Assembly: GCA_024231025.1 (NCBI GenBank)
Contig: JAAEQW010000274.1
Span: 1,615-65,614, forward strand
Direction: 5' to 3'
Origin: Candidatus Omnitrophota bacterium
Lineage (GTDB): Bacteria > Omnitrophota > Gorgyraeia > Duberdicusellales > 4484-171
Length of the DNA stretch: 64,000 bases
Shown: piece by piece, positions 7,501 to 57,900 of the stretch
How positions within the stretch are numbered: the first letter of the stretch is position 1
Layout: each line of letters opens with the position of its first letter
The notes under the pieces: model-generated
Database searches by the model: none
What the model saw: the letters and a program-made list of their open reading frames with translations, nothing else
What the model was told of the DNA's origin: nothing
Program-made: the position numbers and the translations under genes

Positions 7501-7959
7501 TTATGTAAAAATAATCGCCAAACGAAGAATGATGTTGGCATAAATTCCCGCGATCAGATCATCACCCACAATACCCTTGGCTCCAGGAAATTTTTCAATC
7601 CTATTGGCTGGATAAACCTTAAGCATGTCTAGCATTCTAAAAAGAAAAAATCCAATAATTAAAAATTTGTAGCTATAAGGAATAAACAAAAAGGTAAGCA
7701 ATTGTCCGGCAAAATCATCAACCACTATTTTTTTGCAATCTTTTTCACCCGACAACTCTTCAATCCGCGAAGAAACTAAAAAAGCTAAGGCAATCGTAAC
7801 AACTGTAATCACAAAAAATCCAACATTACTGCGCACAAAATAATAAATAAAAACAGCCACCACACAACCAGCGCTACCCGGCATTAAAGGGGTATAGCCA
7901 ACACCAAAAACCGTTGCTATATAAAAATATATTTTGTCTTTTACGTTAAGTAATTTCAT
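7501..7959 (-). CDS. pgpA: Phosphatidylglycerophosphatase A.
   Basis: Carries VFGVGYTPLMPGSAGC and DDFAGQ PgpA-family motifs. It sits adjacent to pgsA. Confidence 0.8.
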   Translation of the reverse strand: MKLLNVKDKIYFYIATVFGVGYTPLMPGSAGCVVAVFIYYFVRSNVGFFVITVVTIALAFLVSSRIEELSGEKDCKKIVVDDFAGQLLTFLFIPYSYKFLIIGFFLFRMLDMLKVYPANRIEKFPGAKGIVGDDLIAGIYANIILRLAIIFT

Positions 7960-7960
7960 A

Positions 7961-8524
7961 TCAAAATGTCCTTATTGTTTTTCTATTAACCCAAAGATAA
8001 TAAATACCCGAAAAAAGAGTAATCCCCACCACATAAAGCATTATAAACGGAATAACTTTAGAATAAAAAAAATAAACAAGATCGTTATGAAAAATTTCCT
8101 GCAAAATAAGCACAATGAAAATAAAAACAACCGCAACAATTTGAGATACTGTTTTATGTTTACCGCAACGTCTTGCCTCCAAAATTATACCACGATTTAA
8201 ACTATATAAACGTAAACTAGTGATTACAAACTCTCTAAGCATAATAACGCTTACCATCCAGGCATTAATCACCTGCAATTGCAAAAAAGCAAGAAAAACA
8301 CCGATCATAAGAATCTTATCGGCCACTGGATCCAAAAGTTTTCCTAAGTCGCTCACTAAATTCAGTTTACGTGCTAAATATCCATCTAGAAAATCAGTTA
8401 TCGACGCAAGAATAAAAATTAGAAAAGCGATCAAAAAACAAATAAGATTATTTCCTAAGATAAACCCGATGCATATAAAGGAAAGAAAAATCCTCCCTAT
8501 TGTAAGTTTATTAGCAATGTTCAC
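7961..8524 (-). CDS. pgsA: CDP-diacylglycerol--glycerol-3-phosphate 3-phosphatidyltransferase.
   Basis: CDP-alcohol phosphatidyltransferase motif DFLDGYLAR...DPVADK. Confidence 0.85.
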   Translation of the reverse strand: MNIANKLTIGRIFLSFICIGFILGNNLICFLIAFLIFILASITDFLDGYLARKLNLVSDLGKLLDPVADKILMIGVFLAFLQLQVINAWMVSVIMLREFVITSLRLYSLNRGIILEARRCGKHKTVSQIVAVVFIFIVLILQEIFHNDLVYFFYSKVIPFIMLYVVGITLFSGIYYLWVNRKTIRTF

Positions 8525-20252: not shown

Positions 20253-20936
20253 TTATCCCGCATCTTGCTTCTTTTTGCTAAATTTCCCTTTCATAATAAA
20301 AACCACAATACAAGCAAAAACAGTATATAAAAAATACCAGGTAAAGACAAGCGGATTATTTAAAAAATACTCTGTCATTTTTTCTATAGATAGCGACTTT
20401 ACCGATGCCAGCGGGTATTGAATCCAGAAAATTCTCGGCGGTGAGGCCAAAAGAACTATCAGAAAATATTTTCTAAATCGCACCTTGCTTAAACCAAAAC
20501 TAAGGTCCAAAACTCTATAGGGGATAAAAGGAATGGCGCGAAGCAAAAACATCCAACCAAAACTGAAATCCTCCAGCTTCTCATAAAACCCTTTAAACCG
20601 ACCTCTTAATGATTTTTCTACAAAATCCTTGCCTAAAAATTTGCTTACATTAAAAAATAGATAAGCATTAATAATTTCCGCAACATAAATAAGCGCAGTG
20701 CTAAGAAAAGCACCAAACACTATTGCGCCCACAACTTTTAATGGATCCTTTAAATACCAGATCAAAAAAGTACCAACAACATAAATAAAAATAAAAGCAA
20801 GACATGCCCAACCAATCGGCACCTTATCAAGGAAATCATCAATTTTCGCGGCGTCAATAGAAAAGTACTTCCCCAATCCAAAGAGAACGGCTAACAGTCC
20901 AATAAATATGATAAATCGAAATTGTGGTTTTTTCAT
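20253..20936 (-). CDS. TVP38/TMEM64 (DedA-like) family membrane protein.
   Basis: Multi-TM protein with a conserved core resembling the SNARE-associated/DedA family. Confidence 0.55.
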   Translation of the reverse strand: MKKPQFRFIIFIGLLAVLFGLGKYFSIDAAKIDDFLDKVPIGWACLAFIFIYVVGTFLIWYLKDPLKVVGAIVFGAFLSTALIYVAEIINAYLFFNVSKFLGKDFVEKSLRGRFKGFYEKLEDFSFGWMFLLRAIPFIPYRVLDLSFGLSKVRFRKYFLIVLLASPPRIFWIQYPLASVKSLSIEKMTEYFLNNPLVFTWYFLYTVFACIVVFIMKGKFSKKKQDAG

Positions 20937-21980: not shown

Positions 21981-22088
21981 TGCACTAACATTATAGTCGC
22001 CTGTCTCCTTTTAAACAAGAAAAAATGACTACAGGCGCTGCGTTTCAAAATCCTTTTATTTTCCTCTGATTTATACTATAATCTACTG

Positions 22089-22865
22089 ATGCCTGAATAT
22101 AACTACCAAATACATTCCAACATTAAAAACATTGCCCCCATTTTGAATGAGCTTGAGGCTAAGTGGAAAGGCTTTGGGATAGATGAAAAAATTATATTTC
22201 AGCTGCGCTTGTCGACTGAGGAATTGATCGTCAATGCCATAAAGCACGGCAACAAGTCTTGCGAAGAGTTATTGATAAAAATAGTTTGTCGTATTTTCGC
22301 TGATAAAATTGAATTAGAAATTGTCGACAAAGGCAGTGGCTTTGACCATGCAAGCTTGCCTAATCCGACTGCAAAAGAAAATTTAGAAAAAAGAAGTGGG
22401 CGAGGCGTTTTTCTTGTAAAACAATTTATGGATAAAATAGAGTTTCTTGAAGGTGGCCGACGAATAAAAATAATTAAAATCACAGACATCCGCGATATTA
22501 GCAATACCGCTGAAATGCCAAAGGAGGGAAAAATGATTATATCGAAAGAAGTTACAGGCAACATCACTATATGTAAAATTGACGGTGAAATAAATATTGA
22601 TAATTCTTACGAACTACGCAAAACCTTTGAGGATCTAACAAAAGAAGGAAGCAGAAAAGTAATTGTTAACTTCTCCGCTTTAAACTACATTGACAGCTCC
22701 GGCCTTGCAACATTAATTGAAATGTTTCAACGTCTTAAAAAGATCGATGGCGCTCTTCGAATATGTTCACTAAATGACAAGGTGAAAAGCGTATTCGAAA
22801 TAACTAAACTAAATACTCTTTTCCCGGTTTATGATAGTTTAGAAAGTGCTCAGGAGGGCTTTTAA
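22089..22865 (+). CDS. Fusion protein: RsbW/SpoIIAB-type serine kinase (GHKL ATPase) fused to a STAS (anti-sigma-antagonist, MlaB-like) domain.
   Basis: N-box EELIVNAIKHGN and G-boxes DKGSGF/GRGVFLV. The C-terminal STAS domain carries the phosphorylatable-serine motif YIDSSGLATL. The stop codon overlaps the mlaE ATG. Confidence 0.75.
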   Translation: MPEYNYQIHSNIKNIAPILNELEAKWKGFGIDEKIIFQLRLSTEELIVNAIKHGNKSCEELLIKIVCRIFADKIELEIVDKGSGFDHASLPNPTAKENLEKRSGRGVFLVKQFMDKIEFLEGGRRIKIIKITDIRDISNTAEMPKEGKMIISKEVTGNITICKIDGEINIDNSYELRKTFEDLTKEGSRKVIVNFSALNYIDSSGLATLIEMFQRLKKIDGALRICSLNDKVKSVFEITKLNTLFPVYDSLESAQEGF

Positions 22866-23653
22866 TGGTCTCTGGAATTGGCGCTTTTACAATTTCCTGC
22901 CTTAAAGAAACAGCGCAGGTACTAAAGCTTCTTCGAGAAATCCTCTACTGGATATTTATTGCTCCTTTTAAAGGTAAACCGCTAAAGATAAAATTAATCT
23001 TTGATCAAATGATTTTTTCTGGTTGGCATTCTACGCTCATCGTTTTTTTCGTAACTATGTTTACCGGTATAGTTCTTGCGATGCAAGCTGCTTACCAACT
23101 AGAAAAAATGGGTGCTTTAATGTATGTTGCTTCTCTTGTCGCTGTATCGCTATGCCGCGAGTTGAGCCCAGTTTTAACCGCGCTTGTTGTTGGAGGGCGT
23201 GTTGGTTCTGCAATCGCAGCTGAACTGGGCACAATGAAAGTAAGTGAGCAAATTGAGGCCTTAGAAACGATGGCGATAAACCCGGTAAAATTTTTGGCAG
23301 TTCCGCGCTTTATTGCGCTATTTTTTATGCTTCCGGTATTAACAATTTTTGGAGACGCAGCCGGAATCTTTGGCGGATATTTAATGGGTGTTCACAGTTT
23401 AAAAATTAACCCTGCCCTATACACACAAATCACTTTCAAATTCTTATTGCTGAAAGATATCTACACTGGACTTGCAAAATCATTCGTATTCGCAATGATT
23501 ATCGCTTTAATCGGTTGTCGACAAGGGCTTAATACCCGAGGCGGCGCAGAAGGTGTTGGAAAAGCCACCACCAATAGTGTAGTATTAAGTTTTATCTTCA
23601 TTATTCTGGCAGATTGCATAATTACAGGCATTTTTTATTTCTCAAACATGTAA
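22865..23653 (+). CDS. mlaE: Phospholipid ABC transporter permease MlaE.
   Basis: Residues VGGRVGSAIAAELGTMKVSEQIEALETMAINP are typical of MlaE. Confidence 0.85.
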   Translation: MVSGIGAFTISCLKETAQVLKLLREILYWIFIAPFKGKPLKIKLIFDQMIFSGWHSTLIVFFVTMFTGIVLAMQAAYQLEKMGALMYVASLVAVSLCRELSPVLTALVVGGRVGSAIAAELGTMKVSEQIEALETMAINPVKFLAVPRFIALFFMLPVLTIFGDAAGIFGGYLMGVHSLKINPALYTQITFKFLLLKDIYTGLAKSFVFAMIIALIGCRQGLNTRGGAEGVGKATTNSVVLSFIFIILADCIITGIFYFSNM

Positions 23654-24439
23654 ATGGAAAAAGATATTATAATTTCATTAAACGGAATAAACAAAACTTT
23701 TGGCAATCGTCATATCCTAAAAAATATCTCTTTAGATATTTATAAAGGTGAGACTTTCGTAATCATGGGGTGTTCCGGATCAGGAAAAAGCACGCTTTTG
23801 CGCACCATAACCGGCGCAATAAAACCCGATACCGGCAAACTACATATCAAAAATAAAAACATTTTGGAATTAAATAACCACGAGTTTGACAAAATTCGCC
23901 GCGATTTTGGAATGCTTTTTCAATATTCTGCACTATTAGATTCACTAACGATTGAGGAGAATGTTGCATTGCCAATCAGAGAGCACACTAAATTGGCTGA
24001 TGAAATTATTAAAATCATAGTAAAACTTAAACTATCTTTAACTGGATTAAAAAATTTTGAGCATCACCATCCTTCTGAAATATCCGGAGGAATGCGCAAA
24101 AGAGTAGGCCTTGCCCGTGCGATCGCTCTTGATCCGGATATAGTTTTTTATGATGAACCAACTTCTGGACTTGATCCGATAGTAGCAGCGGTTATTGACA
24201 AGCTGATTAAAGATCTCAGTAAAAAATTACTGATTACTTCGGTAGTTGTAACCCATGACATGCAAAGTGTATTTAAAATAGCTGACCGAATAGCTATGAT
24301 CCATCAGGGTGAAGTAATTGCAATTGGAACACCGAGTGAAATACAAAAGTCAAATAACGCGCTGGTTCAACAATTCATCAACGGTCAAGTTCAAGGTCCA
24401 ATAGATTTTTTCAAAAACACAGAACTATTTAAAATATAG
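23654..24439 (+). CDS. mlaF: Phospholipid ABC transporter ATP-binding protein MlaF.
   Basis: Walker A motif GCSGSGKST, signature SGGMRKR and Walker B motif VFYDEP. Confidence 0.85.
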   Translation: MEKDIIISLNGINKTFGNRHILKNISLDIYKGETFVIMGCSGSGKSTLLRTITGAIKPDTGKLHIKNKNILELNNHEFDKIRRDFGMLFQYSALLDSLTIEENVALPIREHTKLADEIIKIIVKLKLSLTGLKNFEHHHPSEISGGMRKRVGLARAIALDPDIVFYDEPTSGLDPIVAAVIDKLIKDLSKKLLITSVVVTHDMQSVFKIADRIAMIHQGEVIAIGTPSEIQKSNNALVQQFINGQVQGPIDFFKNTELFKI

Positions 24440-24458
24440 TGCAGGGAGGTTAAATAAA

Positions 24459-25109
24459 ATGAAGAAATATGGCAACGAATTTAAAATTGGAATTATTGTT
24501 TGTGTCGCCTTGCTGGTGCTCGGCTACATGACGATAAAAGCCGGAGATTTTTCTTTTAAAACGGAGGGCTATCATGTTTATGTGTCTTTTGATGATGTCG
24601 CAGGATTAGAAAAAAATGCCCCAGTGCGATTGCGAGGAGTTGAAGTAGGAAACGTAGAGGACATTGGATTAAACTACGACAATCATTGCACAAAAATCTT
24701 ATTAACGCTTTGGATTGATGCAAAATTCAAAATAAGAGGCGCGCCAATCGCATATATTCGCTCCTTGGGATTAATGGGAGAAAAATATATTCAGCTTATA
24801 GACGAAAAAAATAGCGACACTTTCTTAAAACCCGCCACAATTGTGAGCGGAAAAACACCAGGAGATTTCGAAAAACTTATGGATTCCGCTGAAGTAATCG
24901 CAAAAAATACCAATGAATTAATTTTAGAAGCAAGATCTGTTGCTCAAAATATAAACCTCTTATTAACGAATAATGAAAAGACCATCACCAAAACAGTACA
25001 GCACCTCGAAAGTGCTTCCTGCAACTTTAATGAATTCAGCGAAGATTTAAGGCGTAACCCCTGGAAATTGCTTTTTAAAGCCAAAGAAAAGAAAAAAAAT
25101 GAAAAATAA
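24459..25109 (+). CDS. mlaD: MCE-domain protein MlaD.
   Basis: N-terminal TM anchor followed by an MCE domain. Confidence 0.8.
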   Translation: MKKYGNEFKIGIIVCVALLVLGYMTIKAGDFSFKTEGYHVYVSFDDVAGLEKNAPVRLRGVEVGNVEDIGLNYDNHCTKILLTLWIDAKFKIRGAPIAYIRSLGLMGEKYIQLIDEKNSDTFLKPATIVSGKTPGDFEKLMDSAEVIAKNTNELILEARSVAQNINLLLTNNEKTITKTVQHLESASCNFNEFSEDLRRNPWKLLFKAKEKKKNEK

Positions 25110-26367
25110 ACATAATCTATCTCCAACTTTCATAGATGCCTCTTCTTTACTGGTATCCACCTTGGACGCTAAAGAAATTCTCCCTAGAGCAATGGAGATA
25201 ATCAAGGATCTTCTTGGTTGCGAAACCGCAAGTATAATGCTGGTTAATCAAAGAGAAAAAAAATTAACCTTTGAAGTTGCCTTAGGAGAAAAAGGTGAGG
25301 CAATCAAGCAAATCAGCCTTCCCCTTGGAAAAGGCATTGCCGGTAAGGTCGCATTATCCCAAAAACCAAAACTAGTTAAAAATGTTGAAAAATGTGCCGA
25401 GTTTGATAAAAGCTTTGATGAGAAAAGCGGCTTCCAGACCAAAAGCATTCTTTGTGTGCCAATAATATTTAAGGGTATAACTATCGGTGTTGCCCAAGCT
25501 ATAAACCCGTGTAAAAAAAATACCTTTGACGAGAATGACCTATATCTTCTCTCGTTATTTTGCAACCAAGTTGCTCTCGCAATTGAAAGTGCACGCCTTC
25601 ACGAGCGTATTCTTACTCAACGCCACCTTGAAGACGAATTAAATTTCGCCCGAACAATCCAACAAAGCTTTCTACCTCAAGATTTTCCTGAGACTAAGCA
25701 ATTCGCCTTCTACGGGATGAACGCGCCAGCGCGTAAGGTTGGCGGTGATTTCTATGATTTTTTCGTTCTAGATGAAGATCGAATCGGATTTACTATCGGA
25801 GACGTATCCGGTAAAGGAATACCGGCCGCTTTATTTATGGCAAAAATTTTAAGCCAGATTAAAATTATTTCTCAGAAAAAAAATAATTTGTTAAATCCGG
25901 CTATGGTTTTAGAAGAGCTTAACTCGTCTCTTCTAGAACGCCATTCTGATAACATGTTCGTTACTTTAATTTATGGCATATTCTCGCCAAAGAAAAAAAC
26001 AATAACTTTAGCCAGCGCTGCGCATCCCTATCCATTTCTTTACAGCAACAAGCAGAGCAAATGGGAAAACCTGCATATCAACAATGGCCTACCGCTAGGA
26101 GTAGTTAATGACACGCGATACACCTCGCAAGAAATAAAATTAGCCGATGAAGATATTTTGGTATTTTTTACTGACGGGATACTGGAAGCAGACAACGCCC
26201 AGGGAAACCCTTTTATCCCTTATATATTTTCCCAAATATCTGCACAAGGCTGCATTCGAACACTTGCCAAAACTATACTGACGGAATTAAAGGATTTTGT
26301 AACTTCTTCACATTCATTTGATGATGTAACTCTTCTTATAATCAAGTGCAAAGGCCAAAGCAGTTAA
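25099..26367 (+). CDS. GAF-domain PP2C-type serine phosphatase (RsbU/SpoIIE family).
   Basis: N-terminal GAF domain and C-terminal PP2C motifs GDFYDF, DVSGKGIPAALFMA and FTDGILEA. The gene overlaps the mlaD end by 11 nt. Confidence 0.8.
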   Translation: MKNKHNLSPTFIDASSLLVSTLDAKEILPRAMEIIKDLLGCETASIMLVNQREKKLTFEVALGEKGEAIKQISLPLGKGIAGKVALSQKPKLVKNVEKCAEFDKSFDEKSGFQTKSILCVPIIFKGITIGVAQAINPCKKNTFDENDLYLLSLFCNQVALAIESARLHERILTQRHLEDELNFARTIQQSFLPQDFPETKQFAFYGMNAPARKVGGDFYDFFVLDEDRIGFTIGDVSGKGIPAALFMAKILSQIKIISQKKNNLLNPAMVLEELNSSLLERHSDNMFVTLIYGIFSPKKKTITLASAAHPYPFLYSNKQSKWENLHINNGLPLGVVNDTRYTSQEIKLADEDILVFFTDGILEADNAQGNPFIPYIFSQISAQGCIRTLAKTILTELKDFVTSSHSFDDVTLLIIKCKGQSS

Positions 26368-26891
26368 ACATTCTGCCCAGACTTAACAGAAAAGATTACA
26401 TCTTTAAGGAAAGCTTTCTCAGCTAAAGCTAGCTTGTAATGATGATCTAACAAAAGAGTTAGGTTGCGGGGTGATCTTTTTAGCTCTTCTTTTTTTTCTA
26501 TCAACCATTCTTTTACTTTTTCTAAAAAACGTAGACGCAAACGCAAAAGAGGCATAATTTCTTTTTTATCTAAAAAGGGTAAAAAATATAACGCTATGTC
26601 CAGCTCAATAAATGGCCGCCGCTGAGAAAGAAAAGCCTGCTTGCAAAGACTTAAGAAGATTTTTTCTCCTTTTGGCGTAATCGAATAAAGATATTTTTTT
26701 ATATGCTTGGAACTTTTTGGCTCCTTCTTTTTGATTAACCCTTCTTTTTCCATCTTTCGCAACGGATAATATATAGATTGGGTTTCTGGTTTAGAAAAAA
26801 TACCCAGCTCTTGACTGATAAATTTCTTAATATCGTACCCGGAAGAGGGGTTCTTCTTTAAAAGACCTAGGATTATGAGATTTTGAATCAT
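26364..26891 (-). CDS. PadR family transcriptional regulator.
   Basis: SGYDIKKFI...YYPLRKMEKEGLI winged-helix motif. Confidence 0.6.
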   Translation of the reverse strand: MIQNLIILGLLKKNPSSGYDIKKFISQELGIFSKPETQSIYYPLRKMEKEGLIKKKEPKSSKHIKKYLYSITPKGEKIFLSLCKQAFLSQRRPFIELDIALYFLPFLDKKEIMPLLRLRLRFLEKVKEWLIEKKEELKRSPRNLTLLLDHHYKLALAEKAFLKDVIFSVKSGQNV

Positions 26892-27841
26892 TCTTGGAAA
26901 ACGCCCATTTTTCTAAATTTTTCATACCGCTGAGTGAGCATGTCTTCTGTGGATAACGATGAAACTTCATCTAAACTTTTAATTAAAGCTTTTTTCAAAT
27001 TATCAGCAGTTAATTCATAGTCACGATGAGCACCGCCTTGTGGTTCAGACACAACGCCATCAATAATGCCGAGTTTTAACAAATCAGAACCGGTAAGTTT
27101 TAGAACTTTTGCAGCTTCCTCTCTCATGGACGCATCTTTCCAAAGAATGGCCGCACACCCTTCCGGTGAAATAACTGAATAATACGCATACTCCATAAGC
27201 ATAACCCGATCACCTACGCCAATACCCAAAGCACCACCAGAACCCCCTTCGCCAATTATTGTAACAATTATCGGCGATTTTAAGGCAAACATATCTCTTA
27301 TGTTTTCGGCAATCGCCTGAGCCTGGCCTCTTTCTTCAGCGCCAATTCCAGGATATGCGCCAGGAGTATCAACCAAGCAAATGATCGGCATACCAAAACG
27401 CTCTCCCAACTGCATAATCCTCATTGCCTTACGATATCCCTCTGGATGGGCACAGCCAAAATTTCTTTCAATATTCTCTTTAGTGTCTCTACCCTTTTGA
27501 TGGCCAATAACAACAACTTTTCTACCATCAAGCTTGGCAAAACCACAGATAATGGCCTTATCATCGCCATAAAGTCTATCTCCATGCAAAAACACAAAAT
27601 CATCAGTGATTATATCTATATAGTCCTGTGTTGTTGGGCGCTTAGGATGACGAGAAATCTGAATTCTTTGCCAAGGAGTCAGCTTGGAATACACTTCTTT
27701 TTTTAGAATACTTAGCTTCTTATCTAAATTTTTTATTTCCGCAGAAAGATTAACACCTTTATCGCTAGAAAATTTTTTTAATTCTTCTATCTTATCTTCT
27801 AGCTCCACAACTGGTTTTTCAAAATCCCAACCTTGCATCAT
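26888..27841 (-). CDS. accA: Acetyl-CoA carboxylase carboxyltransferase alpha subunit.
   Basis: Full-length match to the AccA pattern (FEKPVVELE...GGSGGALGIGVGDRV). Confidence 0.9.
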   Translation of the reverse strand: MMQGWDFEKPVVELEDKIEELKKFSSDKGVNLSAEIKNLDKKLSILKKEVYSKLTPWQRIQISRHPKRPTTQDYIDIITDDFVFLHGDRLYGDDKAIICGFAKLDGRKVVVIGHQKGRDTKENIERNFGCAHPEGYRKAMRIMQLGERFGMPIICLVDTPGAYPGIGAEERGQAQAIAENIRDMFALKSPIIVTIIGEGGSGGALGIGVGDRVMLMEYAYYSVISPEGCAAILWKDASMREEAAKVLKLTGSDLLKLGIIDGVVSEPQGGAHRDYELTADNLKKALIKSLDEVSSLSTEDMLTQRYEKFRKMGVFQE

Positions 27842-27843
27842 AG

Positions 27844-28644
27844 TTAATCCACTACCGTTGCTTCTGTCCCTATTGGAACAATGTCATATAATTCTTCTAC
27901 TTCATCGTTGCGCATCCGCACACACCCCAAGGTAACTTGCTGCCCCAACATTTCTGGCTCTGTTGTGCCATGTATTCCATAACCTTTAATATCAAACCCG
28001 AGCCAACGCGAACCTAAAATATTTTCCGGACTATCCGGAGGAATAACCGCACCCGTTTTAAACCAAGTCGGACGAGAAAGTTTATTAACAATCTTGAAAG
28101 TTCCTATCGGGGTGCTATTGTTTTTTCCAGTTGATATAATATATGTTTTTATTACCTCTCCATCGCGTTTAAGAAAAAGTAAATTTTGCGACTTATCCAC
28201 CGCAACAGAAAAAGTTGAAGTTATCACTTTTAGTTTTTGTCCCGGTTTAATTATGTCGGATTCTAAGTGGTTTACTCTTTTGATCAACCCCACAGTTGTT
28301 CCATATTTTCTGGCAATTTTCGACAAGGCATCGTTAGGCCTAACAACATATTCTGTGCTTGCTTCGCCAACATTAGCCGAAAAAAGAAGCTGCATATTGA
28401 TTTCTTCTATTTTATTCTGCGCGTCTTTAAACTTTTTCGGATCGTTGATTTTTTCCAAAGCATTTTTATACATATCTTTTGCATCTGTGAGATTCCCCTC
28501 GGCAAGTTGATCGTCTGCTTTTTTTAATGAAAAACTCTTACGCACCGATGCTGACTTTTCGGTTTTTGACCCTCTAGACAATAAAACAACTACACCGACT
28601 AAAACCACAACTCCAATAATAATAAATATCTGTTGTTTTTTCAT
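27844..28644 (-). CDS. LysM-domain L,D-transpeptidase (YkuD family).
   Basis: Signal/TM segment, a LysM domain (YVVRPNDALSKIARKYG) and a catalytic HG...GCVRM motif. Confidence 0.8.
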   Translation of the reverse strand: MKKQQIFIIIGVVVLVGVVVLLSRGSKTEKSASVRKSFSLKKADDQLAEGNLTDAKDMYKNALEKINDPKKFKDAQNKIEEINMQLLFSANVGEASTEYVVRPNDALSKIARKYGTTVGLIKRVNHLESDIIKPGQKLKVITSTFSVAVDKSQNLLFLKRDGEVIKTYIISTGKNNSTPIGTFKIVNKLSRPTWFKTGAVIPPDSPENILGSRWLGFDIKGYGIHGTTEPEMLGQQVTLGCVRMRNDEVEELYDIVPIGTEATVVD

Positions 28645-34240: not shown

Positions 34241-34861
34241 TTAAATTATCTTGTCCTTGCTCGCACGTATTCTAATAACATTTTCGGATACTTTAAATTT
34301 ATCTGGCAATAAAAATCTGAATATGACTTTTTTAATCCCATCAGAATTATCGTCATACTTAAACTCACATATATCTTCTGCTTCTTTAATCGCCTTATAA
34401 AACTCTTTTTTAAAAACTTTCCGAGGAACTAACACCAAACCAGCAAAGTTGTCAGCTTGTCGTTCAAGCATATCTCTTTTTTCTACTGACATATCTTGAA
34501 TCAATTTTTTCCACTCGTCTCTACTTTCAAACGTAAACTCCTGATACATATAAGAGTGCAAAAACATATGCCCTATTTCATGTGCTAAACTAAAACGTAA
34601 TCTGTTTGGGCGTTGATGATAAATAAACTCATCAACGGAAATGCTACTAAAATCATTAGCAATAAAAGCATCTATATCCAACCCCGCCCTCGAAAATGAA
34701 TTTTTCAAATCAGGAAGTGGAATAATATCTATTTTTAATTTATTGTCTAAAATTTCCTCTATATCAACAAAGATAGAGAAATCTGGGCTGTAACTTGCTA
34801 AAAAACTTTCAGCAACAGCATTTATTTCATCGTAGGTTTTGAAGATGGGTTCGAATTGCAT
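34241..34861 (-). CDS. ImmA/IrrE family metallopeptidase (DUF955).
   Basis: HEIGHMFLH motif. Its stop is 5 nt from the upstream XRE gene, giving the classic XRE-ImmA pair. Confidence 0.8.
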   Translation of the reverse strand: MQFEPIFKTYDEINAVAESFLASYSPDFSIFVDIEEILDNKLKIDIIPLPDLKNSFSRAGLDIDAFIANDFSSISVDEFIYHQRPNRLRFSLAHEIGHMFLHSYMYQEFTFESRDEWKKLIQDMSVEKRDMLERQADNFAGLVLVPRKVFKKEFYKAIKEAEDICEFKYDDNSDGIKKVIFRFLLPDKFKVSENVIRIRASKDKII

Positions 34862-34866
34862 TCAGT

Positions 34867-35232
34867 CTAAGATTCTTTTATCCTATCAATCAGCTCATCA
34901 AGCTCTTTCTCGGATAACTTTTTATCTTTTAATGTTCTGAAAAATACTGGCAGGCGAGACATTAGCTCCTCTTCCTTTTGTACATCAGTAGGAATTTTCC
35001 CCGCATCAACTGACGCAAAATCCATGAATGCTTGCCAATCATCGCTACCTTTTTTGATTTCTAAAAAAGTAGCTAATTCTTCAAGCCTTTCTTCAGACTG
35101 CGGCGGAGACATTTTCCCCCGTTCAATCTTGCTTATATTCCCAGCATCCAATTCATGTTCCAAGCAAAATTGACGCAATGTCTTCCCTAAAGATATCCTT
35201 TTTTCTTTAAAAAATTCTCCGAAACTACCCAT
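34867..35232 (-). CDS. XRE-family HTH transcriptional regulator.
   Basis: The residues KRISLGKTLRQFCLEHELDAGNISKIERGK form an HTH. Confidence 0.8.
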   Translation of the reverse strand: MGSFGEFFKEKRISLGKTLRQFCLEHELDAGNISKIERGKMSPPQSEERLEELATFLEIKKGSDDWQAFMDFASVDAGKIPTDVQKEEELMSRLPVFFRTLKDKKLSEKELDELIDRIKES

Positions 35233-35539
35233 ATTAAACCTCCCCCACTAAGGTTTATGTGTTGTAATATACTTACAACTCCCAATTAGAGTGTACCATA
35301 ATTGTAAAAAAAATACAACCTTGTTCAAGTCCATTCCATATACATTATTACTTCTATATCTCTCATAATATCAATGTGTTACAGCAAAAATATAATTTAA
35401 TTTCCAACAATATCTTAATGCCACTCTAAATTCACTCAAAATAAACAAATAAACGACCGTTTTTAGTTTCCTAATTCTTACCATAATATCGCCCATTTTG
35501 CTTGCCTAAGAGCCTGCGGAAACTAAGGACTTGTCGAAA

Positions 35540-35663
35540 AAGCTGGAATAGATTACAAATACTACCAAAGGATAGAAGGTAAAAACCCTCCGAACTTAAA
35601 ACTAGAAGCTATCGAATCTCTCTGCAAAGCTTTTAAGATCAAACCTACGAAAATACTTGAATA
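35540..35663 (+). pseudogene. Relic of an XRE-family HTH gene: a C-terminal fragment with no start codon and an in-frame stop immediately upstream.
   Basis: Translates to ...LSKKAGIDYKYYQRIEGKNPPNLKLEAIESLCKAFKIKPTKILE*, with TAA directly 5' of the fragment. Confidence 0.45.
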
Positions 35664-35759
35664 AAAACTCGCCAAAGGCTTTAAAACAAAACTATCTAAG
35701 CTTTTAGATATTAAATAATAAGATTCTTTAGCGGCATTTAAGCGATCTGAATATATTAA

Positions 35760-36782
35760 CTAAGGCAATAATCTTCTATTTACAGCTATTAGCTTGCTTA
35801 CTTCCTTTGAATCAACATCAAAATGATGACCTGATTTTATTGGAATCAATACCCCATTAAAATTATTACAAAATTTCACTAAATATGTCTTGAGATTAAA
35901 GATGCTCACCCTGCTAATTAAGCTTGTGCCTTTCCATCCCAAAATAATAAGGTGACCATTTGTAACTTTTATATTTTGACTTTGCAGTTTTCTATCAATA
36001 TCAAGAATAGGTGGTTCGTTGACACCGAAATACTCTTTGCTATCTCCTTCACCAAATCTTATAAATTTCCTAATTCCGTCAAATTCTTCTCTCAAAGCGA
36101 ATTTTTTCCCGACTATGCATGCTAAATAATTAAAAGCTATCTTGCATATCCCTCTATATACCACAGAATCAATTTTTATAATACCTTCGACTAATGTTTG
36201 ATTCCTCTTTTTAACTTCCTCTGGCCACTCTAAATCTTCTTCGGGTTTAATATTCATCCCTTTATCGCTAAACACTCTTAATAGACTTTGCATTTCATTA
36301 TCGTCTTTTGCTATTAAAGGAATTTTCTTATCTTTAATCTCGTACCCTTTACTTGTTAATTCTTTCGCATGGGGTATATCATTCGGCTCAAAATAATCAT
36401 ATTCTTGTGTTTGCTTATTGAAAAACCCTGCTTGTAATACAGGGTCTATATCATTTTCTCCTTGCACTCCAGAGTACCTTGGTATAACTATCATCCCTTT
36501 CAACTCTCCACAAGGTATCTTAAATTTCAATCTCTTATGCTTCTTCGGATTTTCTCTTGGTTTAATGCCATGGATATATCTAACAACTCCCTCGATGGTG
36601 TCCCTGCCTAAGTATAGCTCTATATTATTTCCAAAAAACTGGTTACACTCATCACAGACGCTTTTATAAAGTAAAAGATTACCGGGAGTAAATTTACCGA
36701 AGCATTGAGGAATAACATGCTCTCGCTTGCTAAATTCTTCTTCTGCCTTATCTTTAGAGCAATAAATACACTTTTCCTTCAT
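35760..36782 (-). CDS. HNH (His-Me finger) nuclease-domain protein with a 290-aa C-terminal domain of unknown function. A candidate defence/abortive-infection effector.
   Basis: N-terminal CIYC...EHVIPQCFG...CDECN, the HNH_5-type pattern. The rest has no recognisable motifs. The gene lies inside a tRNA-flanked island next to XRE/ImmA. Confidence 0.6.
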   Translation of the reverse strand: MKEKCIYCSKDKAEEEFSKREHVIPQCFGKFTPGNLLLYKSVCDECNQFFGNNIELYLGRDTIEGVVRYIHGIKPRENPKKHKRLKFKIPCGELKGMIVIPRYSGVQGENDIDPVLQAGFFNKQTQEYDYFEPNDIPHAKELTSKGYEIKDKKIPLIAKDDNEMQSLLRVFSDKGMNIKPEEDLEWPEEVKKRNQTLVEGIIKIDSVVYRGICKIAFNYLACIVGKKFALREEFDGIRKFIRFGEGDSKEYFGVNEPPILDIDRKLQSQNIKVTNGHLIILGWKGTSLISRVSIFNLKTYLVKFCNNFNGVLIPIKSGHHFDVDSKEVSKLIAVNRRLLP

Positions 36783-37862: not shown

Positions 37863-38375
37863 TTAACTATTTTGGCTAAGCCAGGTTTCTACTTCCTTGT
37901 GATCAAATAAAAGATTTGAGCCCGACTTTTCTGCCGGAATCGCTCCAGTTCCGACCCACTCCATAATTTTACTCTCGCCTACCGAAAGATAGTCAGATAG
38001 CTCTTCTATTGACATTTTTACTTGAGCCATTCTGCAATTTCCGTTTAGCACTGCCCCTTTATCAACGGCAAGCCGGGGAGTTTCAATGTTTCCAACTACC
38101 TCAGCTGTTGACCCTAGTTCAACTAAACGACTAGCTTTAATGTCGCCTTTTACTATACCGGCAATGGCTATGTTTTCGCCGATAATATCTGCTGTTACGG
38201 TAGCGTTTTTACCGATAATCAAATTCCCTTTTGTTGTTAAATCTCCATCAAACTTTCCACTTATGCGTAAATTTACAGGGTCAGAAAAAACTAAGCTTCC
38301 CCTCATTGCTGCAGTAACGTCAAGAAACTTCACTTCATCACTTTTTTTGTCTTCCCTTTTCTTCATCACAACCAC
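37863..38375 (-). CDS. Bactofilin-domain protein fused to a C-terminal excisionase-type HTH DNA-binding domain.
   Basis: Bactofilin beta-helix repeats (ISGKFDGDLTTKGNLIIGKNATVTADIIGENIAIAGIVKGDI...) followed by MSIEELSDYLSVGESKIMEWVGTGAIPAEK. Confidence 0.6.
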   Translation of the reverse strand: MVVMKKREDKKSDEVKFLDVTAAMRGSLVFSDPVNLRISGKFDGDLTTKGNLIIGKNATVTADIIGENIAIAGIVKGDIKASRLVELGSTAEVVGNIETPRLAVDKGAVLNGNCRMAQVKMSIEELSDYLSVGESKIMEWVGTGAIPAEKSGSNLLFDHKEVETWLSQNS

Positions 38376-52442: not shown

Positions 52443-53900
52443 ATGGCTGGCGCAAACCCATTAGTTGCGGTTTTGTTCTTTTTTGTTGCAGTTATCGTTG
52501 TGCTTGTGTTTTACCTCTTTAGCAAGCTACAAACACTTTCAATACTGAAAAATACGATTACTCACTTAGAAAAAACCGTCACCGAGCTGGATCATCAAGC
52601 AAAATTAATCATCAAGGGCGATATGGAATTAAAGGTTTACCAGGAAGAGGTAGAAGACAAGATAGAAAAGCTAACCTTCCTTAAAAACCTGATTTTGTCT
52701 TCGGTACACATTCTTGACCGAGAGGACCTTTTCTGCCAGATTAATGACAAAATCATAAGCGACCTCGGATTTAAAAAAGGTATTCTTTTTGATTTTAGTA
52801 GCCTGGAACAAAAGGTCAATGTTGACTGCAGCAGTGAAGAAGTAAATACAATCAAAGATTTTCTTTTGCGCAAAAAACAAGCAATTACAACAAACCACCT
52901 TCTTTCTCGCGATTCAGAAATCTGCACAAAATTAGTATATGAATTAGGTTATGACGATTTTCTTATTGCCTCAATAAAGGCGCGCGAAAATGTTCACGCA
53001 ATATTCTTTCTAGCTAATACTGTTTTACCAGGAAATATTCGTATCGCCGAAAAAGAAATATTCTCAATTCTCTGCATGTATCTCGGCCAATGCTTAGACA
53101 ACATAACTCTTTTTGAGGATTTATATTTGGCTAAAGATGATCTTGAGAAAAAAATTCGCAGACGCACAGGCGAACTAGTTAAAAGCTTAAATGAAATTGA
53201 AATAATAAGTAAAACTAAATCTGATTTTATATCCAGCGTTTCACACGAATTGCGCACACCACTAACTTCGGTTAAAGGTTTTTCTTCTCTGTTAATAGCA
53301 GAAAAATTTGGAAAGCTCCCCGCAGAAGCTAAAACCCGCCTGGAAAAAATAGACATAAACGTAAATAAGCTCGTTGATATGGTAAATATGCTCTTGGATA
53401 TATCTCGCATAGAGTCAGGAAAAACGGAAGTAAAAATTGCCCCAGCAGATATTGTAAAATTAATCAAAGATATTTGTGATTTTCTATCTCCGCAAATACA
53501 GGCTAAAGAAATTACTCTTTCAACGGATACTCCAGAAAATTTAAGTGTATATATGGATAAAGGATTAATCGAACGCGTCTTGATTAATCTAATAAATAAT
53601 GCTTTAAAGTTTACACCTCAGGGAGGAAAAATTATAATTAGCTGTAAAAAAGAGGCAAAACAAGCAACGGTGTCGATTATTGATAACGGCTGCGGTATTC
53701 CAAAAAATGATATTGAAAAAATATTTGGAGAATTTTATAGGACCCAATTAACCAAAAACATTCAAGGAACAGGTCTTGGACTTTCTTTAGTAAAACGCAT
53801 TATTGACACACACAAAGAAAAAATATGGGTAGAATCTGAAATAGACAAAGGGGCCTCTTTTAATTTTACACTGAAACTGGAAGAGGCTAAGAATGTATAG
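52443..53900 (+). CDS. Membrane-anchored sensor histidine kinase.
   Basis: N-terminal TM helix, coiled coil, HisKA (SHELRTPLTSV) and HATPase (NALKFTPQGG, DNGCGIP, GTGLGLSLV). Confidence 0.8.
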   Translation: MAGANPLVAVLFFFVAVIVVLVFYLFSKLQTLSILKNTITHLEKTVTELDHQAKLIIKGDMELKVYQEEVEDKIEKLTFLKNLILSSVHILDREDLFCQINDKIISDLGFKKGILFDFSSLEQKVNVDCSSEEVNTIKDFLLRKKQAITTNHLLSRDSEICTKLVYELGYDDFLIASIKARENVHAIFFLANTVLPGNIRIAEKEIFSILCMYLGQCLDNITLFEDLYLAKDDLEKKIRRRTGELVKSLNEIEIISKTKSDFISSVSHELRTPLTSVKGFSSLLIAEKFGKLPAEAKTRLEKIDINVNKLVDMVNMLLDISRIESGKTEVKIAPADIVKLIKDICDFLSPQIQAKEITLSTDTPENLSVYMDKGLIERVLINLINNALKFTPQGGKIIISCKKEAKQATVSIIDNGCGIPKNDIEKIFGEFYRTQLTKNIQGTGLGLSLVKRIIDTHKEKIWVESEIDKGASFNFTLKLEEAKNV

Positions 53901-54822
53901 TTTAAAAATTTTAAGCGTTGATGACGACCCCGACATTTTAGATGTTATTTTAGCCACACTGGAAGGAGACTACCAGGTAGTGCAAGCATTAAACGGCAAA
54001 GACGCGATAGAAACCGCGAAAAAAGAATCTCCCGACCTATTAATTTTAGATTACAATCTTCCTGACATGCAAGGACCGGATATTTGCGCAATTTTAAGAA
54101 AAGATCCTCTTTTTCTAAACACCCCAATTTTAATGTTAACCGGTAAAGGTGAGATAGAAGACAAAGTAAAAGGGTTAGAAGCCGGCGTTGATGATTATAT
54201 GGTAAAACCTTTCGAACCGCAAGAATTGGTAGCTCGAGTGCGCATGCTAATCCGCCGCTCAACTATAAATTTAGATGCAAACCCATTAACTAGGCTGCCA
54301 GGAAACGTTTCAATCACCCGAGAGCTGGAAGATAAAATAAAGAATGAACGCGCATTTGCCGTTTTATACAATGACCTAGATAACTTCAAAGCCTTAAATG
54401 ATTACTATGGGTTTGATGCCGGCGATCACATTATTAAGGAAACTGCCCGAATTTTAGTTGCCGCAACCCAAGAAAAAGGCACCGTAAAAGACTTTGTTGG
54501 CCACATCGGCGGAGATGATTTTGTGATTATAACAAAGCCAGAAAATGCTGAAGGGCTTGCCAAGAAAATTATTGCTGATTTTGACAAACTTGCCCCAAAT
54601 CTTTTTGACGAAAAAGACAGAGTAAAAGGTTTTATCGAAACTAAGGGCCGCGATGGGTTAATTCATAAATTTGGCTTTCCCACAATTTCGATTGGGATCA
54701 TTACCACCGATACCCGTGAATTTACTCATGTGGCTGAAGTTAGTTCGGTTGGAGCCGAACTTAAAAAGCTCGCCAAAAAATTTGAAGAAAGCAAATATGT
54801 AGTTGACCGCCGAAATATCTGA
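53893..54822 (+). CDS. Response regulator with a receiver and a GGDEF domain bearing a degenerate GGDDF active-site motif.
   Basis: REC motifs (ILSVDDDP, DLLILDYNLPD), GGDEF-domain HIGGDDFVII and no RxxD I-site. Confidence 0.75.
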   Translation: MYSLKILSVDDDPDILDVILATLEGDYQVVQALNGKDAIETAKKESPDLLILDYNLPDMQGPDICAILRKDPLFLNTPILMLTGKGEIEDKVKGLEAGVDDYMVKPFEPQELVARVRMLIRRSTINLDANPLTRLPGNVSITRELEDKIKNERAFAVLYNDLDNFKALNDYYGFDAGDHIIKETARILVAATQEKGTVKDFVGHIGGDDFVIITKPENAEGLAKKIIADFDKLAPNLFDEKDRVKGFIETKGRDGLIHKFGFPTISIGIITTDTREFTHVAEVSSVGAELKKLAKKFEESKYVVDRRNI

Positions 54823-54970: not shown

Positions 54971-57900
54971 TTAGTACGGTTTACTTTTGCGGCGGATGCG
55001 TGTGATTTCAAGACGAAAGCCAGTGATCGCAGCAGGATCAATATCAATGAATTCCTGCGCAACAACGGGGACATGTACCGCCTGCCTGCCGGACGGGCAG
55101 GGAAGCCCCGACAAAGTCGGGGATCGGTGCGCGTCCCCGGAAGACACAAAAGAACCGGAGCGTTCTTCATCTATTTCAATCATTTCAGAATTAAGATCAA
55201 TGCCGCCAGAAATGATAGTTTTAGATGAGGCACCGGCATTTTGATTTCTGGCGACTCGTGCCGATACAGCTGAAGACAATTCTTCTTTTACATGAGAATA
55301 GAACATCTCCTCGTATCTACCCCATTCATTCTTTTTGTGATTTTCATATTCATCAACTATTTCTAAAAGTTGCTCAACACTCATCTGCTCAATCACCCAT
55401 GCATGATACAGGGTAAGCTGCGTTTCATTTTGGCTGAAATATTTTTTCTGACGCTGGGCCGCAACATGATGGGGTTGCCCCTCGATGCGTTCGGTGTATT
55501 CATGATCAATTACCTCACCCAAAGCAAAGAATGTAAAATTGTCTTGATTAATATAATTTGAATTAAGAATTATTGATAAAGTGCCGTCGATTTCTTTTCT
55601 GCCGGCAGCGTCCATAGTCTCAGGTAGATGATCGGATAAATACACATTGATCTTTTGCTTATCAAGCTTATCGGCATCTTCCATTCCTACCAAAGGGGAT
55701 TTTAGAAATTTAACAAGCTCATTCTTATCAAATGACAATTCTCGCTCAGGATTAATCAAAGCATTAAATTGATCATCGGTAAATTTTGGTTTGGCTACAT
55801 CACCAACCCTGCGGCTAGGGCGTTTAAGGGCAACCGGAAAATTCTTTACTTTGCCTTCATCTTCTAACTTGACGACATCGATAACCGGCACATTAAGATG
55901 AAAAATATCACTTTTTTTAATACCTTCTGAAGGCTGCTCACCCAAGGGGATCGGCTGTGCCCGACCTCTTTGTTTTTTCCGTTTTTTGTTCCGATGTTTA
56001 TTTTTTTCTTGCGATCTCTTTCTTTTGGTGTTATTAGCTCCTTCTTTCACCCCTATTTCTTGTTTAAGTCTTTTATACCGTTTGGAATTTACCGGTAAAA
56101 ATATTATGACATCTTCATATCTAACAACACCCTTAACTTCCTCTACCGCCCGAACATCCTCAAGCGTAAGTTCTTTATTGCCGGAACTAGCAACTTTTTT
56201 CTTCACCACCAATGAAAATGCCTTTTCAAAAATTGTAATATAGGAAAAAGAATCTCTACTGGAAGTTACAACTATAGTAGGAAAATCTTTAATGCTTCCT
56301 TCTTCTAAAGCGTCAAAAAGATAATTTACTAATTTAACAGCGAAGTTCGCTGAATAACAAGCTCCGATAATTATTACTAAGTCTGATAAAGTGCCGACTT
56401 TAGCTGCCCGCTTCATCAAAGCCTCACCGTACTCTTGATAGCTAATTGCCCAAGGGTGCTCCATTTTGTCACTTACTTCTCTTCCTAGCTTCCCACCTCT
56501 CAACCACAAATGCTCTGGGCCGCCATGCTTATGATGCCAAAGTACGTTATTTTTATCATTAATAGGTATGTTAGGCACTGTCTTCTCAAGAAATTTAATT
56601 TTATCTTCGACGCCTTCAAACCGATTTTCTTGATCAATGGTAACGCCTAAAGGCTTTACTATATCTTCTAACTGCTCGCCAGTAAAATCTTTATCAACAT
56701 GAGTATACGCATACACCGAAGATCCTTTCTGAATAAGCGCTCTTCGTTTGTTCGCTTCATCAAAAGTCTCAACTATAAAAAATAGTGCTTTCTCAATCGC
56801 TATCGCTTGTCGCAAATTGTAATTATCCTCTGTGGAAAGTTGGATATCAAAACGTTCCAAAAGAAGCACAACTGACTTAGCCAAAGAAAACTGATTGGCA
56901 TATTTTTTACTAAATGCTAAAGGGAGCGTTTTCGCAATAAAAGCACTATTAAGATATACTGCCCTTACTTCATCAATTGAAAAATTACCTCTACCAATTT
57001 CTGATGATCGCCAAAAAATATTCTGCCAAAAAGGATCAAGAGTACTCGTAACCTCTTCCATTTGCTCATAATTTAACTTCATCGCAATTACATATAAAAC
57101 TCTACTCGCAGCCTCACGAAGTTCCTTATTCTCAGACTCTAGTGCCCTAAAAAGCTTCTCAAACAAAGTATCACCAATTAAGCGAAATCCACTTGATATG
57201 TTTCCATGGTTGGTTTTTCCTTGCAAAGATTTTAGAAAAGGAGGCACAAGAACATCCCTAAGATATTCAATATCACGTAAATGCGCACCGGACATAACTT
57301 CTATTACTAATTTTGCTGTTTTTTGATTCAACTCCTTATTTTCTGAAGCTAAAGTTTCAATAAAAATCTTAAAAACTTCAACAGTCAATATTGATCCCAT
57401 TTCAGTTAACCTCATTCGGGATCGATCCCTATTTTTCTTCTTGTTATCCTCTAGGCTATCAATAAGTGCTAATGCGGCTTTTTGACGCATGGATTTAAAA
57501 GTTGTGCTATCTGTAACTGGTTTTTTAAACATATTACCTAAACCCTCAATAGCCATAAATCGCATTTTGCTATCATTATGCTTTAAGGTCTTCATAGCAC
57601 TAGAGAAAACGTCTTCTGCTATCGTGGTGGATAAATCCTCGTAAATATCAGCGAATATATGTCCTAGACCAATTGTGGCAAACGAATTGCCTTGATTAAT
57701 TGCTGTAATTAACATTGGAATAAGTTTTTGCTCAATAACCCTAGCTTTTACTTGCGTAGAACACAGCCCTTCCATAGCCATCGCAGCAACATCTCTTACA
57801 TATTCTTCTTTAGCCAGCAGACCATGCAGCCCTATAGCAACAACAATTTCGGTTCTACGGTTTTTGTTTTTTTCCCCTTTAAGAACTTTTGCGATTTTCG

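Follow-up and report, generated by a model that had tools for sequence, protein, structure and literature searches.

What does a serine kinase of the RsbW/SpoIIAB type control when it is joined in one polypeptide to its likely STAS substrate and stands at the head of an operon for a lipid transporter? This question is raised by a gene at positions 22089-22865 (plus strand) of a 64,000-nt stretch of DNA from Candidatus Omnitrophota bacterium (contig JAAEQW010000274.1); the whole 64-kb stretch is called here the window, and all feature coordinates refer to it. The gene opens a complete operon (22089-26367) in which kinase-STAS is followed by mlaE, mlaF, mlaD and the gene of a GAF-PP2C phosphatase, and which therefore has the presumed writer, substrate and eraser of a phosphorylation bracketing an MCE-type lipid ATP-binding cassette (ABC) transporter. 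The reading that we favor, with a probability of about 0.45, is that the STAS domain acts like MlaB and that its phosphorylation controls its binding to MlaF.

The gene is a single open reading frame (ORF) with zero internal stops and encodes 258 amino acids (aa). Its N-terminal part (aa 1-131, 22089-22481, plus strand) is an RsbW/SpoIIAB-type GHKL serine kinase domain, assigned by the Pfam model HATPase_c_2 (aa 13-129, E 3.4e-22, 79.2 bits against a cut-off of 27.4), by PDB matches to RsbW and SpoIIAB and by motif invariance. The N-box (E45/N49, nt 22221-22235), the G1 box (D80-x-G82-x-G84, nt 22326-22340) and the G2 box (G104-R-G106, nt 22398-22406) are present, with E45, N49, G82, G104 and G106 invariant across 89/89 related sequences, and this half is predicted to be an active RsbW-type serine kinase. 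A linker (aa 132-148, 22482-22532, plus strand), delimited by model confidence and alignments, leads to a SpoIIAA/RsbV-type STAS domain (aa 149-258, 22533-22862, plus strand), assigned by Pfam STAS (aa 152-254, E 1.1e-22, 80.3 bits against a cut-off of 22.6), by the NCBIfam model TIGR00377 'anti-sigma factor antagonist' (81.7 bits against 53.45) and by alignment to PDB 1TH8_B. In this alignment (E 1.2e-10) the DSSG motif (D202-S203-S204-G205, nt 22692-22703) coincides with the SpoIIAA phosphoserine motif, and S203 (codon at nt 22695-22697) is the predicted phosphoserine. The two structural claims of an earlier note on this DNA, that a kinase and its STAS substrate are fused in cis and that the ATP-lid G-boxes and the target serine look intact, were thus borne out.

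An AlphaFold2 monomer model, built with 12 fused homologues, reached a mean predicted local distance difference test score (pLDDT) of 86, with about 90 for each half and less than 50 for aa 135-146, which are predicted to be disordered. In the model S203 opens a predicted helix (203-218), i.e. it lies at the N-terminus of helix alpha2. As the predicted template modelling score (pTM) was only 0.52, the model leaves the relative placement of the kinase and STAS domains unpredicted. The linker differs in length among fused orthologues. Foldseek matched the kinase half to SpoIIAB/RsbW and the STAS half to SpoIIAA/RsbV, and public annotations of such proteins read 'anti-sigma factor antagonist' or 'STAS domain-containing protein'.

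Downstream genes follow closely, the stop codon TAA of the fusion sharing one base with the ATG of mlaE (TAATG). mlaE (22865-23653, plus strand) encodes the permease of an MCE/Mla-type ABC transporter (Pfam MlaE, E 5e-78; TIGR00056, 244 bits against a cut-off of 212). The product of mlaF (23654-24439, plus strand), the ABC ATPase, has MlaF as its best NCBIfam match and aligns to MlaF structures of A. baumannii (E 3e-65) and Escherichia coli (E 7.6e-56) in the PDB; the alignment runs to residue 253 and covers the start of the C-terminal 'FxxGxxxGP' extension, and by these matches it is a bona fide orthologue. mlaD (24459-25109, plus strand) codes for the MCE-domain subunit (Pfam MlaD, E 1e-18; NCBIfam MCE and MlaD below their equivalog cut-offs). 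Its end is overlapped by 11 nt by the start of the gene of the GAF-PP2C (SpoIIE-family) serine phosphatase (25099-26367, plus strand; Pfam SpoIIE, E 1.4e-42; GAF, E 2.9e-16), the presumed eraser of Ser203 phosphorylation. With it the operon holds a full kinase/STAS/PP2C partner-switching set.

To place this order among relatives, one genome per GTDB species was scanned with motifs from the fused family, which yielded 80 loci, mainly in metagenome-assembled genomes (MAGs) of Omnitrophota; their genes were identified by mechanical ORF calling and phmmer with the window proteins. Because retrieval used STAS motifs, the synteny figures describe the kinase-STAS family studied here, not RsbW/RsbV pairs generally: in 75/79 distinct loci the gene directly after STAS is mlaE, at a median distance of 4 nt, and 68 of these 75 gaps measure 25 nt or less. 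Among the 45 loci whose sequence extends far enough, 40 have a PP2C gene 3' of mlaD in the same orientation; in 4 further loci it stands upstream, and overall 44 of some 49 informative loci possess one. DSSGLA is 100% conserved in these loci, which is in part an effect of ascertainment, since the motif served as a scan pattern. The same arrangement was found in MAGs labelled Planctomycetota, Auribacterota and Eisenbacteria, the taxon labels of some MAGs being possibly unreliable, and the genes upstream of the kinase vary between loci. Most relatives have as phosphatase a CHASE2-PP2C protein of ~640 aa, with genes for a secreted FecR-domain protein and an outer-membrane beta-barrel in front of it; in the window lineage the phosphatase is a reduced, cytoplasmic GAF form, and the FecR-domain and beta-barrel genes are absent from the window.

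Some variants of the operon are recorded here in their own right. The FecR-domain gene and the beta-barrel gene (BBP2_2/OMP_b-brl) lie between mlaD and CHASE2-PP2C in ~35-38 loci (e.g. locus L008, 9914-11785, and L034, 10093-11907), and their products possibly serve in envelope sensing or as an outer-membrane partner resembling MlaA. A second STAS gene gives the order STAS-kinase-STAS-mlaE or kinase-STAS-STAS-mlaE in some loci, the extra copy being 5' of the kinase in L033, L037 and L054 and in tandem in L067. In L054 (6414-8018) mlaE and mlaF are fused into an ORF of 534 aa.

The gene neighborhood bears directly on the most serious competing explanation, a canonical anti-sigma partner switch, in which the kinase would sequester an alternative sigma factor encoded elsewhere, unphosphorylated STAS would relieve this inhibition and the module would merely be co-transcribed with mlaEFD, e.g. 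as part of a self-controlled envelope-stress regulon. Both halves are nearest to SpoIIAB/RsbW and SpoIIAA/RsbV in sequence and in fold, the kinase/STAS/PP2C set is the classical toolkit, and Rv1364c of Mycobacterium tuberculosis, a fused protein as well, is still tied to SigF; a sigma factor could be encoded elsewhere in the genome. In classical modules, however, the sigma gene follows directly after the kinase gene; here no sigma70-family gene adjoins the module in the window, no sigma70-family domain was detected in the 34 window ORFs scanned (a subset of the window ORFs), and no sigma gene is visible in the conserved operon of about 75 loci. The spacing between STAS and mlaE stays tight in different phyla, with flanks that vary, and repeated independent kinase-STAS fusion seems ill-suited to a kinase that must leave STAS for a sigma factor. 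Compared with the Bacillus modules (SpoIIAB-SpoIIAA and RsbW-RsbV with SpoIIE or RsbU/P), which are its best sequence and fold matches, the window system has the same GHKL kinase boxes, the same DSSG at the start of helix alpha2 and a PP2C in the operon. It differs in that kinase and STAS form one polypeptide, in the order kinase-STAS, the reverse of rsbV-rsbW and spoIIAA-spoIIAB, in having the MlaEFD transporter rather than a sigma gene next, and in the sensor of the phosphatase, which is GAF here and CHASE2 in relatives. We regard an anti-sigma switch as unlikely on balance, and the anti-sigma framing of the earlier note misses the context of a gene that heads an mlaEFD-PP2C operon.

According to the reading in which STAS acts like MlaB, the domain would be the functional counterpart of that protein. 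With Ser203 unphosphorylated it would dock on the ABC ATPase MlaF and support an active MlaFE(D) lipid transporter, and phosphorylation of Ser203 by the kinase would release it; this serine, at the N-terminus of helix alpha2, would lie on the face by which MlaB binds MlaF. The GAF-PP2C, responding to a cytoplasmic ligand, would strip the phosphate and re-arm STAS. The polarity of the switch could also be reversed. The fusion would tether the writer to its substrate, and the internal Shine-Dalgarno (SD) site and ATG retained in the gene would make two products likely.

The analogy comes from E. coli, where MlaB is a STAS protein that binds MlaF and its Thr52, in the middle of the contact surface with MlaF, corresponds in position to the phosphoserine of SpoIIAA; binding to MlaF is weakened by the phosphomimetic T52E, and phosphoregulation of MlaB, for which no kinase is known, was left by the authors as an open question (PMC7367683). 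The window STAS resembles MlaB of the MlaFEDB complex as a small STAS encoded inside the mlaE/mlaF/mlaD operon, with its predicted phosphoserine equivalent to Thr52 of the MlaF-binding face, and the MlaB model NF033618 gives a weak but real match (28.1 bits, E 2e-6). In E. coli, by contrast, MlaB is a divergent STAS, its gene closes mlaFEDCB, and no kinase or phosphatase is known for it; the window STAS belongs to the canonical anti-sigma-antagonist type and stands at the 5' end of its operon. That the phospho-state of a STAS or STAS-like protein may directly control a target other than a sigma factor, and a non-transcriptional one, is known from the HenR/All4160 partner switch of Anabaena. 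Further non-sigma partner switches are SypE/SypA, HsbR/HsbA, BtrUVW and SiaABCD, and the window phosphatase has a weak match to SiaA. In the literature searched, these switches differ from the proposed one in that none targets an ABC/MCE lipid transporter or sits in the operon of its target.

Several points weigh against an MlaB-like role, besides the kinship of both halves with anti-sigma modules and the SigF connection of Rv1364c. The STAS domain fails the MlaB equivalog cut-off (90 bits), and in the PDB its sequence matches SpoIIAA with E 1e-10 and MlaB with E 0.33, which marks it as the canonical antagonist type. The gene order is unlike that of E. coli mlaFEDCB. No Rosetta-stone fusion of STAS to MlaE or MlaF was found among the 120 close STAS homologues listed or the multidomain representatives. 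The loci are an ascertained sample: they are the 80 closest relatives, fetched with STAS motifs and ordered by their similarity to the query. A fused clade (L010, L023 and the fused protein P0005) has a PP2C gene and a K+ channel-like gene and no Mla genes, so Mla is not an obligate partner. Finally, the link between STAS and MlaF is an indirect one, drawn from context and analogy. Membership of the window STAS in the MlaB family by sequence was considered separately and rejected on the two scores given above.

The clade without Mla genes leads to another explanation, that the module regulates a target different from MlaF, such as the channel-like protein or some enzyme, and that its linkage to Mla reflects shared envelope physiology and not a physical contact. 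The protein concerned, of ~255 aa, combines a TPR-like part with Ion_trans_2 (TVGYGD, a K+-channel signature) and is a clade-specific member of the module: its gene comes right after the fused kinase-STAS in L010 (7663-8418) and L023 (7663-8436) and after STAS in L080 (1100-1864). It follows PP2C in 9/37 loci with room for it, occurring in that position in, for example, L012, L028, L034, L035, L037, L038, L042, L044 and L062, and the fused genes P0004 and P0005 adjoin Ion_trans_2 genes. Known non-sigma partner switches hit diverse targets, and the TPR/Ion_trans_2 protein is a possible alternative target of STAS. Yet the channel gene is limited to one clade and absent from the window, and mlaE is the gene that follows STAS in nearly all loci. 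A target other than MlaF therefore appears improbable to us; the position of the module beside another membrane transport protein in some loci was also counted in favor of an MlaB-like STAS.

Is the fusion itself real? The earlier note had named a frameshift artefact joining two genes as the finding that would undo it, and a stop codon lost in assembly or sequencing, or the junction of a decaying pseudogene, would have the same effect. Such an origin is easily imagined, as the relatives are mostly split and one stop-codon change would fuse many of them. However, a protein identical to the window fusion is annotated in an NCBI Candidatus Omnitrophica MAG, and about a dozen full-length fused homologues with 35-60% identity were found in NCBI, ENA, JGI and Logan assemblies. 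In the window clade all of three independently assembled orthologues at ~60% identity are fused, with linkers of unequal length; the two closest, P0003 and P0002 (59-60% identity), lie on contigs from independent Logan and ENA assemblies. The neighbors on the P0003 contig are those of the window, with a divergent rlmN and a VTT-domain gene upstream and mlaE downstream; on the shorter P0002 contig mlaE is directly 3' of the fusion. There are more distant fused relatives, at 35-44% identity, and other fused clades, and every catalytic and phosphosite residue is intact. Because independent assemblies carry fused orthologues, an assembly error is excluded as far as sequence data show, and we consider any artefact or decaying junction highly improbable. 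Judged from these comparisons, the kinase-STAS fusion is genuine, selectively maintained and old.

It is at the same time a minority state, though a recurring one, of what is normally a pair of genes, since kinase and STAS are adjacent separate ORFs in 72/77 distinct loci with both domains, only 5/77 being fused, and the fused forms are scattered on a neighbor-joining tree of kinase and STAS. They fall there into at least five separate clades, a count that is approximate because the tree has no support values, which is a further point against our reading. Close homologues of the STAS domain are free-standing in 120/120 cases among the matches listed, nearly all of ~110 aa. Split STAS genes are preceded by an SD site and start with ATG or GTG, and many split pairs are in the same frame with a gap of 9-18 nt, a single stop codon short of fusion. 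In the closest split relative, L086, whose STAS is 67% identical to that of the window, the two genes overlap as TGATG in two frames. The fusion would accordingly have arisen by loss of the stop codon and of the frame offset between two adjacent genes. Recurrent fusion would be tolerable because in the proposed system STAS, not the kinase, carries the output, and its repetition hints at a kinase without a separate partner.

The earlier note further supposed that a covalent fusion changes the logic of the switch. It need not, for most relatives are split and the gene has kept the ancestral start of STAS: an SD sequence AAGGAGG, a 5-nt spacer and an ATG (22521-22535, plus strand), a probable internal initiation site. 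The ATG encodes Met149, the first residue of the STAS domain, which is invariant in 12 fused database proteins. The pattern AAGGAGG-N3-9-ATG occurs nowhere else in the window, and the site forms the best anti-SD duplex of the fused gene (-12.3 kcal/mol, top among 754 positions); the argument presumes a canonical anti-SD in these organisms. AAGGAGG is retained in two fused orthologues, L084 and L085, and since L084 reads the heptamer in another codon phase (Q-G-G-N-M instead of K-E-G-K-M), it appears to be conserved at the nucleotide and not at the amino-acid level. Five of the other fused genes with available DNA sequence have a strong SD-like site with ATG or GTG at the STAS boundary. In the fused gene of L015 (607-1347) this start codon is lost, with Arg in place of Met/Val, so that this gene could not make free STAS and its fusion would be complete. 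As the strongest anti-SD match and an ATG sit exactly at the STAS boundary, two products, the tethered kinase-STAS and free STAS, are probably made from the window gene, and with free STAS probably still available the switch may work much as it does in the split relatives.

The start of the first cistron has a different character. The ATG of the fusion has no SD site of its own, and a -10-like hexamer TATAAT (22077-22082, plus strand), read from the sequence, ends 6 nt before it. The pattern TAyTATAAT-N6/7-ATG is kept upstream of the kinase in L084, L085 and L086. Because of this conserved TATAAT 6-7 nt before an ATG that has no SD, a leaderless or near-leaderless mRNA is suggested for the first cistron. 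A generic scan of the operon for sigma-70 promoters and terminators gave no more matches than shuffled sequence, and the TATAAT was not listed by it.

The fusion was also presented as a departure from proteins that are normally separate, and a database search for the same architecture and its neighbors was proposed. The neighbors proved to be mlaEFD and PP2C, as described, and the architecture was found widely. A profile built from the fused family and run against 1.84 billion cluster representatives (50%-identity clusters) gave 306 matches with E <= 1e-30, and about 60 of the best 150 clusters, by our count, span kinase and STAS in one protein. Multidomain relatives include response regulator (RR)-kinase-STAS, RR-PP2C-kinase-STAS and GAF-PP2C-kinase-STAS. 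Rv1364c, whose single chain comprises PAS, PP2C, kinase and STAS, both adds and removes the phosphate on its own STAS serine (Ser600) and is reported to bind SigF (PMC9138534, PMC7693655). The window protein shares with it the covalent union of kinase and STAS in the same order, the STAS serine of Rv1364c being phosphorylated by the kinase domain of its own chain. Rv1364c differs in carrying sensor and phosphatase in the same chain, in its tie to SigF and in the absence of Mla genes around it; the window protein, a minimal version of two domains, leaves GAF-PP2C to a separate gene four cistrons downstream. By its domain composition, the fusion alone is a member of an already known architecture and hardly unusual.

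The fusion, a known architecture reached repeatedly by stop loss, matters less than the link to Mla. In its general form, our proposal would mean that Mla/MCE transporters of Omnitrophota and neighboring phyla are switched on and off post-translationally by a dedicated kinase/phospho-STAS/PP2C module, with STAS as a phosphorylatable MlaB and with fused variants giving tethered and free STAS; this extension is put forward tentatively and with more reserve. If it holds, the operon family, in which mlaEFD is flanked across dozens of species by genes for a kinase, a canonical phosphorylatable STAS and a sensor phosphatase, would represent a widespread undescribed transporter class and a natural realization of the MlaB phosphoregulation only hypothesized for E. 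coli. An ABC lipid transporter would then join the short list of non-sigma outputs of partner switching. The question of post-translational regulation of Mla/MCE becomes a testable prediction, namely that S203 phosphorylation gates both the STAS-MlaF binding and the ATPase of the transporter. In the literature searched we found no description of a kinase-STAS-mlaEFD-PP2C operon and no paper covering both MlaB and RsbW. Searches combining partner switching with MlaE/MlaF, or Omnitrophota with Mla, returned standard Mla papers only. Neither Mla nor fusions come up in a review of STAS-only proteins, and a broad phylogenomic survey of Mla in a paper on Veillonella mentions no kinase.

Other features of the window are noted briefly. 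Genes of membrane and envelope biogenesis lie near the operon (7501-8524, 20253-20936, 26888-27841 and 27844-28644), for PgpA, a CDP-alcohol phosphatidyltransferase, a VTT/DedA-domain protein, AccA and a LysM-YkuD L,D-transpeptidase. The region 34241-36782, with a Peptidase_M78/IrrE-like gene beside a small ORF without family match (34867-35232) and an HNH_5 endonuclease gene (35760-36782), may be a small mobile or toxin-antitoxin-like island. The gene at 37863-38375 (minus strand) unusually combines a bactofilin domain with a C-terminal HTH_17 DNA-binding domain in one fusion. A very large ORF of 1518 aa occupies 54971-59527 (minus strand), and beside it lies a gene for a response-regulator-GGDEF diguanylate cyclase (53893-54822, plus strand).

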